From: Candidatus Hodarchaeota archaeon
Lineage (GTDB): Archaea; Asgardarchaeota; Heimdallarchaeia; Hodarchaeales; Hodarchaeaceae
Length of the DNA: 64,000 bases
Direction of reading: 5' to 3'
Assembly: GCA_016839815.1 (NCBI GenBank)
Contig: JAEOTM010000038.1
Span: 1 to 64,000, forward strand
The notes below the pieces were generated by a model. That model was given only the letters and a program-made list of their open reading frames with translations, did no database searches and was not told the DNA's origin. Shown one piece after another: positions 54,417-61,229 of this stretch; within the stretch, counting starts at the first letter, position 1; each line of letters begins with the position of its first letter. Made by a program: the position numbers and the translations under genes.

Positions 54417-55364
54417 TTACAATTTAGGAATTAATGGAACACAGCGAGCATAATCTGATCCGCGGAAGTTATTGATTATTTTATCTATGCATGTTAGTGA
54501 AATGGAGGTCTCGGTGTGAATTTTTTCTCTAGGTATCCCTTCTTCCAGTCGGATTAAAACCTGATCTACTTCTTTAAAACTAAGATCAAATAAATATTTG
54601 TAACTAGTTGGAGTTTCTCGTTTTTTCGTATTAAGATATTCACCTAAACCCATAAATTCTCCAAACTGCACGGTTTGTGTTCGGTAGAGATTTGCTAATG
54701 GAAGAAAATCAGCAGCATGGTAAGTACCGAACTTTGTGAATAAACCCAATAACCATTCAGTTTTATTTACCGATCCTAAAAACGATTTATTCTCAGATTC
54801 TGCAACTAGAAATGCTAGTAACATATGAAGCCGAATCTTGCTTTTATAATGGGCAATTGTTTTCAGGTGATATAATTCCCGATCGGTTGTAGGCTTTTTC
54901 TGGGGAGGTGTGAAGGTTGTTTCTTCGATTTCAGACTGTGTCATGCCACGTAAAAGATAATAACTGAGATTATAGTTATATAAAGGATTCATTCCTGGTG
55001 TTGTCACTCCATAAGCAGCTTTAGTTTTTTCAAATGTAAGATTATTTATTGCAGTAAGGGCTTGTTCGATATTGATAAGAATTAAATTATCATTAGGAAT
55101 TTCAAGATACTTTTTGATTGTTTGTAGGTCTGTACTTCTTGTTATGGTGTCTGTACTGAAACGGCCACGTGGTACAATTAATTTCACATTTTCCCATCCA
55201 ACCGTTATCGCAGCTAACTTTACATTGATTAAGCTTTCAATAGAATCTCTATAAATTATCACTAATCCTTCGATATCGCGTTTTTTTAATGTAGAATCAA
55301 TAAAATCGACAATCGTTGATTGTACTTTCTTGGAATCAATTTTTAGTGCCTCTTCCAAATTCAA
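54417..55364 (-). CDS. NAD+ synthetase (NadE)-like protein A, PP-loop lost
   Basis: KSKIRLHM, GSVNKTEWLLGLFTKFG and DFLPLANLYRTQ are NadE-like; SGGxDS is replaced by YRDSIES. Start placed at TTG 55364 behind GGAGGAG (ORF track starts at 55508). Confidence 0.8.
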   Translation of the reverse strand: MNLEEALKIDSKKVQSTIVDFIDSTLKKRDIEGLVIIYRDSIESLINVKLAAITVGWENVKLIVPRGRFSTDTITRSTDLQTIKKYLEIPNDNLILINIEQALTAINNLTFEKTKAAYGVTTPGMNPLYNYNLSYYLLRGMTQSEIEETTFTPPQKKPTTDRELYHLKTIAHYKSKIRLHMLLAFLVAESENKSFLGSVNKTEWLLGLFTKFGTYHAADFLPLANLYRTQTVQFGEFMGLGEYLNTKKRETPTSYKYLFDLSFKEVDQVLIRLEEGIPREKIHTETSISLTCIDKIINNFRGSDYARCVPLIPKL

Positions 55365-55592
55365 ATTATCTCCTCCTATGCATGTATTGACCTTCAGTGA
55401 GGATAAATTATCTTTCTCTAGCAGTAAGTTGTCCTCTGAAGTGAAATATAGGGAAAGACAATAATATCTTGTTTTTATGAATATACCTACGCTTGATAGG
55501 AGCTTCATTGAAAAAATGCGATTATGCTCTTTTCAAAACAATCCTATTTGCCCCCGATCTCAATTTACGACAAATTTTTGGAGAATGACTTG

Positions 55593-57110
55593 ATGACTGA
55601 AGATCAAAATAACGATAATTCGTTTATATTGTCATTACAGTCATTCTATGAGAAATGGTCTAATCCATCACAACTAAGAGAATCACGAATCCCTCATATA
55701 GTTATAGGATTCATACTATTAGTTTTTTCCTTTTTAATCTTTCAACAGATGAATGCGGTTTCTCCTCGAATAGCAAACATTCTTCTTTTTGGAATAATAT
55801 TTGTTGGTACGTTTTTACTTGTCGCCTTGTATCATGAACGGCAGATTACGATAATTTTTGTTTCTTGTGGAATTTCTCTTTTACTTGCTTCATTTTTATT
55901 TGACAGTTTCAGATGGTCTTCGGTAGTTCTACCAGCTGGTGAACCTTATCATGGTATGATGGAATGGGAAGTTCTTGCTGTCGTCTTTGGAATGTCAATT
56001 CTTGTCGAAGCAACGTCAGAAACAGGATTATTCGATTGGTTAATCATTAGAATGCTAAAGATATCCAAAGGAAGTGTCTTTCCACTTTTCGTTATGACTT
56101 TCCTCCTCACATTCGCCCTTTCAACTGTTCTTGCAAACGTAACAGCAATGATCTTAATTAGCTCAATGATTCTGACGGTTTCTAATGGTTTAGATTACGA
56201 TCCAACTCCATTTCTCCTAGGTGCTGTTCTAGCTACCAGTTTAGCTGGGATGGCTACGTTAATCAGTTCTCTTCCATCAATCCTTGTAGGTTCTAGGGGA
56301 GATATTGAATTCGTTGAATTCTTGGTTGTTTCTATTCCATTCCTTATTTTTGCGATACCCCTGACTATCTTGTATTTGAGAAGAGTTTTCCCTCCTGAAC
56401 AGATTCCTTTAGGAAAAAGCTCCCAAGATAGTTTAGATACACAAATGATCTTGTCTCTTGATGAATGGGGAGTTGTTGAAGATCGTCAAAGATTCTATCT
56501 CGCAGCTTTATCTTTGATTTTGACAATCATAGGATTTATCCTTGCCGATTCTGTTTTTGGAATCCCAATTGGAGTTGTTGCGATTATAGGAGGAATCCTA
56601 GCAATTGTTTTAACACAAAGCGATGAACACCGTCTTTTACATGAGCTAAACTGGGATACACTACTATTTTTTGCGGGACTATTCATCCTAGTTGGAACGC
56701 TTGAGGCAACAGGCATTTTAGAAGATCTGGCTCATTCTTTAACGGATATAAGCAGAGGAGATATAGTTTTTGCAGGTGGATTAATTCTTATTATCTCTTC
56801 CTTTGTCAGTGGGATTCTAGATAATATCCCAGTCACCGCGGCATTTATTCCGATTGTTGAAAGTTTCCCAGCCACTGATTCAAATCCTCAATACTTATGG
56901 TTTATGCTGCTTTTTGGAGGAGCATTCGGTGGAGGATTGACCCCATTTGGGAGTGCGGCATCAATATTAGCGATTTCAATTCTTAGTAAGGAAGGTCGAC
57001 CTCTAAATTTTGTTTATTTCATGAAAAAATTAGTTCCTATCTCTTTACTCCTCTTAGCTTTCAGTGGGGTGTATCTAACAATCCTTGGGTTCGTTTTTCA
57101 TAGAATTTGA
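55593..57110 (+). CDS. Ion-transporter superfamily permease (SLC13/ArsB/NhaD/P-protein-like)
   Basis: ETGLFDW, WDTLLFFAGLFILVG, SGILDNIP, GGGLTPFGS. Start placed at ATG 55593 (ORF track starts at 55524). Confidence 0.88.
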   Translation: MTEDQNNDNSFILSLQSFYEKWSNPSQLRESRIPHIVIGFILLVFSFLIFQQMNAVSPRIANILLFGIIFVGTFLLVALYHERQITIIFVSCGISLLLASFLFDSFRWSSVVLPAGEPYHGMMEWEVLAVVFGMSILVEATSETGLFDWLIIRMLKISKGSVFPLFVMTFLLTFALSTVLANVTAMILISSMILTVSNGLDYDPTPFLLGAVLATSLAGMATLISSLPSILVGSRGDIEFVEFLVVSIPFLIFAIPLTILYLRRVFPPEQIPLGKSSQDSLDTQMILSLDEWGVVEDRQRFYLAALSLILTIIGFILADSVFGIPIGVVAIIGGILAIVLTQSDEHRLLHELNWDTLLFFAGLFILVGTLEATGILEDLAHSLTDISRGDIVFAGGLILIISSFVSGILDNIPVTAAFIPIVESFPATDSNPQYLWFMLLFGGAFGGGLTPFGSAASILAISILSKEGRPLNFVYFMKKLVPISLLLLAFSGVYLTILGFVFHRI

Positions 57111-57139
57111 GCCTTAATGACGAACTTTTAGGGATAAAT

Positions 57140-58066
57140 CTAAATTTTTGGAATAAGAGGTGCATTACGAGTATATATTGAAGATGCGAAATAAAGATTC
57201 ACTTTATCTATCAGCTTAGGGTCAATTTCCGTTTCTTTGTAAATTTCATTCGTTGAAAGTCCGTGTTCCAATCGAAAAAGGATCCGATCCACATCGAAAG
57301 AAGTCAATTCAAAGAAGTATTGATATTTATTCTGTACACCTGGCATAAGGTCAGCTTTGGCCTTATTTGCTATCTGGGATGGGATATCAAGATAGTCAGC
57401 AAGCTGAAGGATTTGAGTACGATACAGATTCCCAAGAGGCATAACATCTGCACAATGCCCATGTCCCCATTTTGTGAATAGGCCTGTAAGCATTTCAGTT
57501 TTATTGATAGTGCCCAACAAAAGAGTATTTTCTGTTTCTGCAGTAAGGTATGCAACCGCCATTTGAACACGAGATCGTAATTTATTATGTGCTATGATCT
57601 TATGGAGTAACCGCTCTCGTTCTGATTCTGCTTTTCCAACCATATCATAAGTATTCCCCTCAATTTCTCTGATCAAGGAGGATTTGAGCAACGAGTAACT
57701 TAAAGGTTGATACAAGGAGGGAACTTCACGAGATCGACTTGGAATTAATGCATCGGAGCTAAAAGGTTTTAGGATAGGAGTAATATCACAATAAACGATT
57801 TGAGAATCTGATATTCCAAGATATTCAATTGATGTTTTCAATGTTTCACTGTGCTTATCAAATATATTTTCAGACCTTACTAAAAGTCGTAAATCCTTTT
57901 CATCAATTGTATCCATCGTTATTTTCGCAATAATTGTCGAATCAATGAACCCTGAAAATAGGATAACGACGCCGTCCATTCTTCGTTCTTCTTTAGACGT
58001 TTCAATGAAGTGTGAAATTTTATTGACAATTTGGCTAGCTTTATCACCGATATCTAGATTTTCCAA
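57140..58066 (-). CDS. NAD+ synthetase (NadE)-like protein B, divergent
   Basis: VVILFSGFIDS (altered PP-loop), LRSRVQM, GTINKTEMLTGLFTKWG, DVMPLGNLYRTQ, ADL. Confidence 0.85.
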   Translation of the reverse strand: MENLDIGDKASQIVNKISHFIETSKEERRMDGVVILFSGFIDSTIIAKITMDTIDEKDLRLLVRSENIFDKHSETLKTSIEYLGISDSQIVYCDITPILKPFSSDALIPSRSREVPSLYQPLSYSLLKSSLIREIEGNTYDMVGKAESERERLLHKIIAHNKLRSRVQMAVAYLTAETENTLLLGTINKTEMLTGLFTKWGHGHCADVMPLGNLYRTQILQLADYLDIPSQIANKAKADLMPGVQNKYQYFFELTSFDVDRILFRLEHGLSTNEIYKETEIDPKLIDKVNLYFASSIYTRNAPLIPKI

Positions 58067-58409
58067 GAATATTTCACCAAAATAACATTGAGATTGTTTA
58101 ATATGGTAGTTTCATAAATAATACTCGAAGATGGTTCGTTTACTAAAAAAAACCTAGAAAACCTTATTCAAGAACTCTTACTTCTCAGAAAAAAATAAAC
58201 CATGCAATGTTATTAATTTATGGTTCATTTGATCTTTATCACTTTAACATTGAATATTTCATATTTTAATTTGAATAGAGGAGTTTTTACTATTTTACCC
58301 GTAAAGAAACGATTGAAAACTCTGTATTATCTCCTTTAATCTCAGAGGATTCTGGATTATTTTTTGTGAACGAATCGTAATTTCAGGCATATCTGGAGAA
58401 TTTTCACTC

Positions 58410-61229
58410 ATGTCATTTGAATTTCTAGACAAAAGAATACAAGATATTCTTCGTGGTTTAGATATCACTCCAACTCCAGGTCAGCTTGAATACCTAAAAG
58501 CTATAATTTCCAATGAAGATGTTCTAGTTGTTGCATCTACTGGTTCGGGTAAGACTTTTGGTACAATCATTGCTTGTTTACATAAATTAATTACTCGATC
58601 CAATCTAACCCCAGTATGTATACTAGTAGTAACTCCCTTGAAGTCGTTAAATCGGGATATCTTTCGACGTGTATTACCCCAATTGTCATCAAAATTAGGA
58701 ATTACCATTGCAGTAAGACATGGGGATACAACTCAATATGAGCGACAAAAACAGACTAAGAATCCTCCTCATATCCTTATTACAACACCCGAATTGCTTC
58801 AAGCCCTTCTACCTGCAAAGATCTTTGGGAGAGTTCATTTAACGAATGTAGAAACAGTCATCATTGATGAAATCCATGAACTTGTAGAATCGAAAAGGGG
58901 GATTCAACTTTCACTTGCCTTGGAACGATTATCACACCGGGTGAATGCTCCCATTCAACGTATAGGGTTATCAGCAACTGTGGGCTCTCCCTCTGTTGTG
59001 ATGAATTTTCTTGCTCCAAAGAGTAAGAACACGAGGATTGTCGAAATTCCACGTTTAAAAGAACTAAATTTACAACTTAATTATCCAAAAACCTTATCCA
59101 CGGATTATAGCAATTTACCTAGTACTATCCATACAACTGAAGACGCAGCCTCACGATTTCAACGTTTATTGGAAATTATTGATCAAGAAGAAGGTACAGT
59201 TCTCTTATTTACCAATACTCGTCAACAGGCCGAAATTCTTGGTTATCGTTTTAAAATGTATAATGAATTTTCTCCTCATGAAAAACAAATATCTTTTGAG
59301 GTACATCATTCGAGTCTATCCACTCAAAGCCGATTACGAGCTGAAAATGATGTACGTGAAGGTGCTTTAGACTTAGTAATTGCTACCTCCTCACTAGAGC
59401 TAGGAATAGATATAGGCGCAATTAGCCTCGTAATCCAGTACATGAGCCCACGAAGAATTGAATCTCTGGTACAGAGAGTAGGGAGAGCAGGCCATGGTTT
59501 AGATAAAGAAAGTAGGGGGATTATTATTACAGAAACACCCCGAGAACTACTAGAGGCCTTTTTAATCAATAATCGGGTTTTAGAAGGGAAAGTCGAACCG
59601 ACAAGAATACATACTTATGCTTATGACATCTTGTTCCAGTCTATTATAGGCATCCTTCTCGATTTTGGTGAAACATCTGTTAAAACTATTCACAAGATTA
59701 TCTCACATGCGGCACCTTATCAACATTTTACTCTGAAAGAGTTAACGCCTCTTCTGAAATTTGGTAAAGATAATTACTTTTTTTCAGTAGAAAAGGATCC
59801 CAAAACTGGCAAAATTTCGATCAGAACTAAGCGTAAATCCTATAAGTTCTACTACTCGAATTTAAGCAGTATTCCTACCAAACGATCTTATAATGTTATC
59901 GATGTTGGATCTCAAGCACGTGTAGGTCAATTAGATGAAGGATTTATTGTTACACGTGGTGATAAAGGAGCGATTTTTATCTTAAATGGGACTCCTTGGG
60001 AATTATTAGCCATTAAAGATGAGAAAGTTGAAGTTAGACAAGTGAGAGGAATAACTGAAGCGACTATTCCAACATGGGAGGGAGAACTTATCCCTGTTTC
60101 ACAATTAGTATCCTCATCTGTAATGGAATTATTTGAAGACGATTCATCTATTCTCACAACTAACGAAGAAATTCAATATGAATTGAAGAAATTCATACGG
60201 GAACAACAAGAAAGGGGACTTACCCCTAAAAAAGGACGATTGCTGATTGAAACAACTGGTCGACAGATTGTGATTCACAGCTTTCTTGGTTCAAGAGGAA
60301 ACGAAACCCTCGGATTGTTACTATCAGCAGTCATTGGAGCTCGTCAGGGACACTCAATTCAATATCGTACAGATCCTTATAGTATTTTCTTATCCCTTGG
60401 CCGCCCAATCAGCCTCAAGAATATCATTGCAACGTTAGATCCTGAGCATATACAACCTCTATTGGAGCATCGTATTAAAAGTACTGATCTGTTTGCATGG
60501 CGACTGCGACAAGTTGCTAAACGATTTGGTGTCCTCTCCGAATCTGCTGAGAATTCAGTAATGATGACACGTTTCATTGTTTCAAGATACAAAGAAACTA
60601 TTGTTGGTCAAGAGGCAGTTAATGAGATTTTAAGTGAAAACATGAATCTAAAACATGTTATACAGTTCTTAGAGAAGATTCAGACAAAGGAAATTGTGAT
60701 TGAGGAAGTCTCTGTATCCTCTTTTGATACTCCCCTCTCTCATGCTGCTACAGAACCAATTTCCTCTAATGTTCTGAAATTGAAACCGTCAACCATTATT
60801 CTTGAGAAAATTGAGAAACGAATTCGTAATACTTGGGTTCGTCTTGTTTGTATGCGTTTATCCTGTAAATACGAAAAATTACAACGTATTGAAAGCCTTG
60901 ATGATATTCAATGTCCCCTTTGTCACTCTCGCTATATTGCAGTTGTTCATCAACACAAAACAGGAGTAAAATCTTTATTGAAGAGATCAACGAATAAAAA
61001 GTTAAAATTAACCAAGGATGAAAAGAAGGAACTTAATACAGCAAAGAAATCAGCAGATATCATTCTCTCATTTGGGAAAAAAGCAGCATTTGTGCTTGCA
61101 GGACGCGGGATAGGTCCAACAACGGCCATTCGAATTCTTCGTGAACCTCATAAAACGACTGAAGATCTTTTAACATCCATCTATCATCATGAAGCTAATT
61201 TCGCTCGTACTCGAGAGTACTGGGCCTAG
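58410..61229 (+). CDS. lhr: Lhr-family SF2 helicase with C-terminal Cys cluster
   Basis: STGSGKT, RHGDT, TTPE, DEIHE, SAT, HHSSLS, TSSLELGIDIG, QRVGRAGH; CMRLSC...CPLC; LAGRGIGP. Confidence 0.93.
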   Translation: MSFEFLDKRIQDILRGLDITPTPGQLEYLKAIISNEDVLVVASTGSGKTFGTIIACLHKLITRSNLTPVCILVVTPLKSLNRDIFRRVLPQLSSKLGITIAVRHGDTTQYERQKQTKNPPHILITTPELLQALLPAKIFGRVHLTNVETVIIDEIHELVESKRGIQLSLALERLSHRVNAPIQRIGLSATVGSPSVVMNFLAPKSKNTRIVEIPRLKELNLQLNYPKTLSTDYSNLPSTIHTTEDAASRFQRLLEIIDQEEGTVLLFTNTRQQAEILGYRFKMYNEFSPHEKQISFEVHHSSLSTQSRLRAENDVREGALDLVIATSSLELGIDIGAISLVIQYMSPRRIESLVQRVGRAGHGLDKESRGIIITETPRELLEAFLINNRVLEGKVEPTRIHTYAYDILFQSIIGILLDFGETSVKTIHKIISHAAPYQHFTLKELTPLLKFGKDNYFFSVEKDPKTGKISIRTKRKSYKFYYSNLSSIPTKRSYNVIDVGSQARVGQLDEGFIVTRGDKGAIFILNGTPWELLAIKDEKVEVRQVRGITEATIPTWEGELIPVSQLVSSSVMELFEDDSSILTTNEEIQYELKKFIREQQERGLTPKKGRLLIETTGRQIVIHSFLGSRGNETLGLLLSAVIGARQGHSIQYRTDPYSIFLSLGRPISLKNIIATLDPEHIQPLLEHRIKSTDLFAWRLRQVAKRFGVLSESAENSVMMTRFIVSRYKETIVGQEAVNEILSENMNLKHVIQFLEKIQTKEIVIEEVSVSSFDTPLSHAATEPISSNVLKLKPSTIILEKIEKRIRNTWVRLVCMRLSCKYEKLQRIESLDDIQCPLCHSRYIAVVHQHKTGVKSLLKRSTNKKLKLTKDEKKELNTAKKSADIILSFGKKAAFVLAGRGIGPTTAIRILREPHKTTEDLLTSIYHHEANFARTREYWA

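Follow-up and report, generated by a model that had tools for sequence, protein, structure and literature searches.

The locus studied here lies at positions 54,417 to 58,066 of a stretch of 64,000 nucleotides (the window; contig JAEOTM010000038.1, positions 1 to 64,000) from a Candidatus Hodarchaeota archaeon, and it consists of two paralogous genes of the NadE fold, called A and B, with a permease gene of the opposite orientation between them. With a probability of roughly 0.45, we read this locus as a NadE-derived module that has been repurposed and linked to a permease of the anion type, and in which A and B would form a ligand-binding dimer, rather than as a second NAD synthetase. The source genome (G000) is a metagenome-assembled genome (MAG) of 4.24 Mb in 206 contigs, 89.5% complete, and the close homologues of its proteins carry the labels Hodarchaeales or Heimdallarchaeota. 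The three genes and the spacer between the first two were placed as follows:

54417-55364, minus strand: gene A, a NadE-fold pseudo-enzyme candidate of 315 amino acids (aa) with a TTG start (PF02540, orthologue alignment, AlphaFold/Foldseek).
55365-55592, no strand: spacer of 228 bp from which A and the permease gene diverge, presumed to be their shared promoter and control region.
55593-57110, plus strand: permease of the ion-transporter superfamily, 505 aa from a conserved ATG (PF03600, CitMHS).
57140-58066, minus strand: gene B, a NadE-fold paralogue of 308 aa with a TTG start (PF02540, AlphaFold/Foldseek).

An earlier note on this DNA, made from the letters alone, had described two NadE-fold genes on one strand, sharing several unusual motifs and flanking an oppositely oriented permease, and this description was borne out. 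Both proteins matched PF02540 above its gathering cut-off of 21 bits (A 59.9 bits, B 112.6 bits), and they aligned with each other at 34% identity over 319 columns (E 3e-46). AlphaFold models were obtained with pLDDT values of 84.5 (A) and 82.1 (B). The top PDB matches of both models were NadE structures (2e18, 3p52, 3fiu and 1nsy; Foldseek probability 1.00), with TM scores of 0.78-0.86 normalised to the target. All of the quoted motifs were present in both reading frames: LFSGFIDST, NKTE, GLFTKWGHGHCAD, NLYRTQ, NKYQYFF and a C-terminal PLIPKI in B, and IYRDSIES, NKTE, GLFTKFGTYHAAD, NLYRTQ, SYKYLF and a C-terminal PLIPKL in A. The plus-strand gene between them matched PF03600 (CitMHS) at 175 bits.

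A and B have the same fold as NadE (PF02540; P. horikoshii PH0182, 2e18; B. subtilis, 1nsy/1ee1), with which they share the NKTE Glu, the GxFTK segment, LY[K/R]T and the C-terminal helical subdomain. They differ from it in an altered or lost PP-loop, in the lack of the TKxGD Asp and of QTDE, in the replacement of EHKR and in an insert of about 55 residues. The PP-loop signature SGGxDS, which reads SGGIDS in the canonical copy, is SGFIDS in B and RDSIES in A. The earlier note had pointed to the altered PP-loop and to the missing Asp and QTDE loop in both genes; these changes are real, and the clade consensus sequences showed them to be clade-wide. A tree was built from 64 NadE-like proteins of 24 genomes in the order, with the canonical copies as the root. 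It resolved three derived clades, A (27 rows), B (22 rows) and C (7 rows), and one X-type protein with an intact SGGLDS. The PP-loop is FSG[Y/F/H][I/M]DST in clade B and FSGQxDS in clade C, and in clade A it is replaced by [Y/F][K/R/S][D/Y]C[V/I/L]ES, the P2 loop being 5-6 residues shorter. The Asp of TKxGD was lost in all three clades (TKWGHGHCAD in B, T.FGYGH in C, TKFGTYHAAD in A). The acidic TDE was replaced by NKY in the derived clades, gene B having PGVQNKY for the QTDE loop, and a C-terminal Y.R..PLIPK (Y[T/A]R..PLIPK) stood for EHKR in A, B and C, which also have the insert in common. The PP-loop Asp and Ser, the NKTE Glu, the Arg or Lys of LY[R/K]T and a full-length P2 loop were kept by B and C, with a conserved new motif, PGxxNKY, in the P2 loop.

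A profile search of 1.84 billion representatives returned a family of long NadE-like proteins of 300-320 aa, matched in one stretch that included the insert (130-235 bits), in Chloroflexota, WOR-3, Bacteroidota and other groups. These proteins are annotated as NAD(+) synthase, fall below all of the curated NadE equivalog cut-offs and are usually single-copy. They are the closest relatives of A, B and C, with which they have the WG.xH[C/A]AD and PGxx[D/N]K features in common, but they differ in keeping SGGxDS, the Asp and mostly TD(E), and in having no consistent permease neighbour. This family is the apparent source of the three derived clades and, since it keeps the catalytic motifs, the losses are specific to the clades of the Hodarchaeales.

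The earlier note had also argued against housekeeping NAD synthesis, and a canonical nadE was indeed found elsewhere in the genome, on contig C117, by a PF02540 search of the whole genome (251.6 bits over the full model). This copy carries SGGIDS, TKYGDG and QTDE and reached 283.4 bits against the NF010587 equivalog, the cut-off of which is 255. It is not a contaminant, since its neighbourhood is syntenic across relatives; in five of them the canonical nadE was located on the same contig as B, 16-23 kb apart. A, B and C scored 98, 131.1 and 107.5 bits against NF010587 and were below every curated NadE equivalog cut-off; B passed the TIGR00552 domain cut-off. As judged from sequence, the canonical copy, the low scores and the loss of the defining motifs give good support to the view that neither A nor B is the housekeeping NAD synthetase. 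In public records B orthologues stand under the name NAD(+) synthase, a label that very probably does not fit A, B or C. One relative (G008, a single record of 3.2 Mb, 70% complete) gave A, B and C types and no canonical nadE in the PF02540 search; the record has N runs and a truncated Lhr helicase gene beside B, and the absence may be an assembly gap.

Among G000 and two relatives, G005 and G006, dN/dS was 0.05-0.09 for A, 0.04 for the permease and 0.05-0.11 for B, with dS above 1 and saturated. Similar values were obtained for the neighbouring Lhr and OsmC genes. All three genes of the locus are under strong purifying selection. For signs of relaxed selection on gene B where A and a working permease have been lost from the locus, two further relatives, G002 and G007, were compared, and a pN/pS of 0.52 was calculated from only 6 synonymous and 11 non-synonymous changes.

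The linkage of the three genes was followed in gene maps of 55 loci, among them 25 evaluable A loci and 22 B loci. A was directly and divergently adjacent to a permease gene in 17 of the 25 A loci and had one within two genes in 20. B adjoined a permease gene, or what remains of one, in 13 of its 22 loci, adjoined an Lhr helicase gene in 12 and was within two genes of an A in 10. The tie to the permease, which the earlier note had drawn for both genes, held mainly for A, as a conserved and co-diversified divergent pair, and was looser for B. Four layouts keep A and B together (A< PERM> B<; A< PERM> B>; PERM< B> A<; A< B<), the last of them having 30 bp between the two genes and being a likely operon, and since these layouts differ, the linkage between A and B has survived rearrangement. 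In the window, the permease gene and B are convergent, with 29 bp between their stops, and the features beyond B are these:

58067-58409, no strand: spacer of 343 bp from which B and the Lhr gene diverge.
58410-61229, plus strand: Lhr-type helicase gene (DEAD, Helicase_C, WH_Lhr and DEAD_assoc), a conserved syntenic neighbour of B.

The helicase gene was treated as context only.

The permease tree mirrored the NadE-like tree: four A subclades and one B subclade each had a permease subclade of their own. Two very divergent permease types were found among the pairs, about 26-28% identical to the permease of the window. Either the pairs duplicated and diverged as units, or a NadE-like gene may have been re-paired with another permease of the same superfamily. 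Joint decay was also observed. In G007, A is gone and the permease gene is split by frameshifts into three pieces, and in G002 a single deletion took A and permease codons 1-415, leaving a remnant of 90 residues; B is intact in both. Both genomes keep another A-permease pair elsewhere. By co-diversification and joint decay, A, rather than B, is the partner of the permease.

NadE is a homodimer with its active sites at the subunit interface, and an A:B heterodimer would therefore be the simplest model for the pair. The P2 loop of NadE closes the active sites once the substrates are bound (PMC6946656). In the proposed module, A would be a dedicated cytoplasmic partner of the divergent permease that has lost the ATP pyrophosphatase loop and kept a remodelled, near-invariant pocket. 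B would most likely pair with A in a dimer of the NadE type, as an acidic and possibly nucleotide-binding subunit where A is basic and degenerate. Such a heterodimer would have at most one nucleotide site, contributed by B, with A as the permease-specific half. B keeps the residues of a putative nucleotide site (the PP-loop Asp and Ser, the NKTE Glu and the Arg of LYR(T/S)Q) and the Mg/phosphate ligands. The model fits the presence of several A (1-3 copies per genome) but mostly one B, so that one B may serve several A paralogues. It also fits the charge of the two proteins (median pI 8.9 for A and 5.7 for B), and the low confidence of the insert of about 55 residues in the two monomer models, which could be expected of an element of the interface. 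An enzyme/pseudo-enzyme heterodimer, as the earlier note had proposed, is plausible in that A and B co-occur, are linked in four different arrangements and are basic and acidic, respectively.

The interface pocket of the dimer would take up a small, common ligand, either a nucleotide or an anionic metabolite, and the dimer would gate the permease or be coupled to it metabolically. The pocket block of gene A, NKTEWLLGLFTKFGTYHA.DFLPLA.LYRTQ, was nearly invariant across subclades with widely differing permeases; it comprises 31 residues around NKTE...TKFGTYHA.DFLPLA.LYRTQ in proteins that are otherwise about 50% identical between subclades. Because this pocket stays the same while the partner permeases diverge widely, a common ligand is favoured over the transported substrate, which is an argument rather than a test and leans towards sensing or gating over substrate-specific catalysis.

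Several observations weigh against a module of this kind. Five A genes had no permease nearby, and B is primarily syntenic with Lhr and far from any A in about half of the genomes. The copy numbers of A and B are not 1:1, and A and the permease gene, being divergent, are not co-transcribed. The functions of the neighbours in other pair lineages were varied and gave no single pathway or metabolic theme. G000 itself has three intact permease paralogues with no NadE-like neighbour (C196:87770-89284, C11:22939-24297 and C11:24520-25929). Finally, no fused forms of A were found among proteins of 553-2000 aa, which is weak evidence.

A more specific form of the repurposed module would make the A-type pseudo-NadE proteins a new class of soluble accessory or gating subunits for permeases of the ion-transporter superfamily, each matched to its own permease, and B the shared nucleotide-binding dimer partner. 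We consider this version doubtful.

The locus could also encode chemistry rather than control, although we hold this to be somewhat unlikely. A and B, as a heterodimer or separately, would then be an AMP-forming ligase or amidotransferase for a new carboxylate substrate, and the permease would import the substrate or export the product, as in metabolic trapping. The residues kept by B and C agree with such an activity (PP-loop Asp and Ser, NKTE Glu, Arg or Lys of LY[R/K]T and the P2 loop with PGxxNKY), as do the membership of the permease in an anion/carboxylate carrier superfamily and the amide and peptide metabolism genes beside other pair lineages (FTCD, GGACT, M42, M20, transglutaminase-like and amidohydrolase). 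However, those neighbour functions differ between lineages, the TKxGD Asp and the acidic P2 residues are lost in all three clades, in B and C a bulky side chain takes the place of the second PP-loop Gly, and A has no such loop at all. The A pocket, moreover, is invariant while the permeases diverge to 26% identity, unlike what recognition of a transported substrate would lead one to expect.

Another explanation separates the two paralogues. A alone would be a ligand-sensing pseudo-enzyme that controls the permease, by binding to it or as a transcription factor acting on the spacer, and B would be independent of it and near it by inherited synteny. It is A, and not B, that co-diversifies and decays with the permease, and B stays by Lhr where A and the permease are absent. 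The divergent layout is that of a regulator and its target, A is basic, and its C-terminal helices gave a weak match to HTH_7 (E 0.0085). The spacer has conserved blocks, and in another pair lineage a palindrome is located upstream of a TATA-like box. On the other side, A and B are kept close in four arrangements that include a likely operon, one permease lineage is paired with a B-type gene, and no motif was common to all of the spacers. Canonical NadE has the HTH-like helices at its C-terminus as well, so that in A they do not represent a newly gained DNA-binding domain. On balance, this explanation appears unlikely.

It is very improbable that A, B or both are NAD (or nicotinamide mononucleotide, NMN) synthetases, redundant or condition-specialised, as public annotation has it. 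Both score above the PF02540 gathering value, B exceeds the TIGR00552 domain cut-off, its orthologues are named NAD(+) synthase in the sources, and G008 showed no canonical nadE; but the PP-loop is changed or missing, as are the catalytic Asp and the acidic P2 loop, EHKR is replaced, the scores of 98-131 bits are far from the cut-off of 255, G000 and most relatives have a canonical nadE, and G008 is only 70% complete, with N runs. The view of A and B as decaying duplicates without function, for which the lost catalytic motifs and the loss or decay of the A-permease unit in G002 and G007 could be cited, was rejected in view of intact frames in more than 50 orthologues, the dN/dS of 0.05-0.11, the near-invariant clade-specific replacement motifs and the confident fold predictions.

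The boundaries of the genes were set by comparison with relatives. The longest open reading frame of gene A covers 54417-55508 (363 aa), but the start was placed at the TTG at 55364 by an alignment with 26 orthologues and by the DNA itself. A Shine-Dalgarno-like GGAGGAG is located at 55370-55376, 5 nt upstream of this TTG. In G005 and G006 a TAA stop stands directly upstream of the same TTG, and for this reason, together with the orthologue alignment, the protein was taken to have 315 and not 363 aa. In the window the frame of A is open for 48 codons upstream of the conserved TTG (55365-55508), with AAT in the place of the TAA of the relatives, and gene callers will over-extend A across its own promoter region. 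The permease frame opens at 55524, its orthologues of 505 aa begin at the ATG at 55593, and this ATG is the most likely start by that comparison.

The A-permease spacer contains blocks conserved among G000, G005 and G006, such as ATAAATTATCTTTCTCTA and GAAAGACAATAATAT, despite the saturation of synonymous sites. The motif search covered 17 A-permease spacers and found no motif common to all of them. Five spacers of another pair lineage (L045, L051, L068, L074 and L047) contain a conserved inverted repeat, ATTCTT-G-AAGAAT, which is degenerate in L047. The repeat is located on the permease side, about 20 nt upstream of a TATA-like box, where it may serve as a regulator site; the window's A-permease spacer lacks it.

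The CitMHS match of the permease was well above the PF03600 cut-off of 31.9 bits. PF02040 (ArsB) also matched at 52.7 bits, the protein has the features of a multi-pass membrane protein, and its nearest solved relative was an ArsB chain (10tp, E 5e-16). A specific identity as an ArsB arsenite pump, MamN or NhaD was not supported by the NCBIfam subfamily scores, all of which were far below their cut-offs (MamN 120 against 500, ArsB 89 against 457 and NhaD 44-45 against 80-577). A further permease paralogue of G000 (C162:35663-37051) carries three in-frame stops, two TAG and one TAA, and is an apparent pseudogene.

In a scan of 301 genomes of the phylum, the A/B/C set was found only in one GTDB genus, in 20 of its 21 genomes, and clades A and B were both present in most of them. 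Single X-like copies were detected in another Heimdallarchaeial genus (11 of 22 genomes) and in a few others, always accompanied by a canonical nadE where checked. No consistent neighbour was found for the X-like relatives in Heimdallarchaeia, Chloroflexota and others, with an adjacent permease in one case only. X-like proteins with an intact PP-loop (L103-L116) from MAGs of Heimdallarchaeia/Promethearchaeum reached as much as 62% identity with those from MAGs of Anaerolineales/Chloroflexota, a similarity across domains that suggests recent gene transfer among sediment organisms. DNA of G000 was itself found in marine-sediment metagenomes (four DNA runs of one study). The exact sequence was absent from a protein atlas, which, searched with a homologue, returned only bacterial clusters of the NadE family. 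The fusions seen in the wider family, with streptomycin adenylyltransferase and with alpha/beta hydrolase, were uninformative, and literature searches turned up nothing on A, B, C or the long NadE-like family.

The third paralogue, C, is located outside the window in G000 (C78:28416-29312; locus L058:6375-7319), with a PP-loop of the SGQxDS type. In five of seven relatives, C is immediately upstream of a transglutaminase-like gene, and in three of those five it is directly preceded by an M20-peptidase-like gene (M20 > C > transglutaminase-like). The C copy of G000 has different neighbours (DUF4332, beta-lactamase-like and leucine-rich repeat (LRR) genes). By analogy, a PP-loop adenylating fold beside a papain-like protease recalls the logic of ribosomally synthesised and post-translationally modified peptides (RiPPs) or of protein modification.

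The surroundings of other A-permease pairs were also recorded. In A subclade v (L064, L070, L073 and L078), formiminotransferase-cyclodeaminase genes (FTCD N and C) are located on the permease side, and a Zn-ribbon protein gene and a GGACT (gamma-glutamyl cyclotransferase-like) gene on the A side. Another A-permease lineage carries genes for a Ras-like GTPase, PadR and a BtrH_N/DUF4872 protein. PADLOC gave no defence-system match.

Known systems offer partial parallels. Ctu1/Ctu2 (Ncs6/Ncs2) is a pair of PP-loop paralogues, one catalytic and one degenerate, that acts in tRNA thiolation. B and A likewise co-occur as two paralogues of a PP-loop fold, one with and one without the nucleotide loop, and may be analogous, but Ctu1/Ctu2 belongs to another PP-loop family and has no permease, and the A/B heterodimer is putative. 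ArsA is a P-loop ATPase co-transcribed with arsB, and NadR is a kinase/adenylyltransferase. In ArsA-ArsB and PnuC-NadR, as apparently here, a permease is genetically tied to a soluble protein of a nucleotide-binding fold, with unequal halves or paralogues; by contrast, the partner in the present locus is a PP-loop protein whose ATP loop is changed or gone, and its gene is transcribed divergently from that of the permease. New in this work are the three-clade structure, with its apparent origin from the intact long NadE-like type, the assignment of the catalytic losses to particular clades, and the identification of A as the partner of the permease.

These results would correct a systematic mis-annotation of such genes as NAD(+) synthase and flag a widespread, uncharacterised family of long NadE-like proteins. 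For the evolution of pseudo-enzymes, the locus would be a clean example of how the scaffold of a catalytic homodimer splits into altered and degenerate paralogues and becomes tied to transporters. With A, B and the permease it would also offer a defined set of partners from the archaeal lineage nearest to eukaryotes. If the A-type proteins are indeed accessory or gating subunits, a PP-loop enzyme scaffold would have become, in Asgard archaea, a transporter switch under the control of a ligand.

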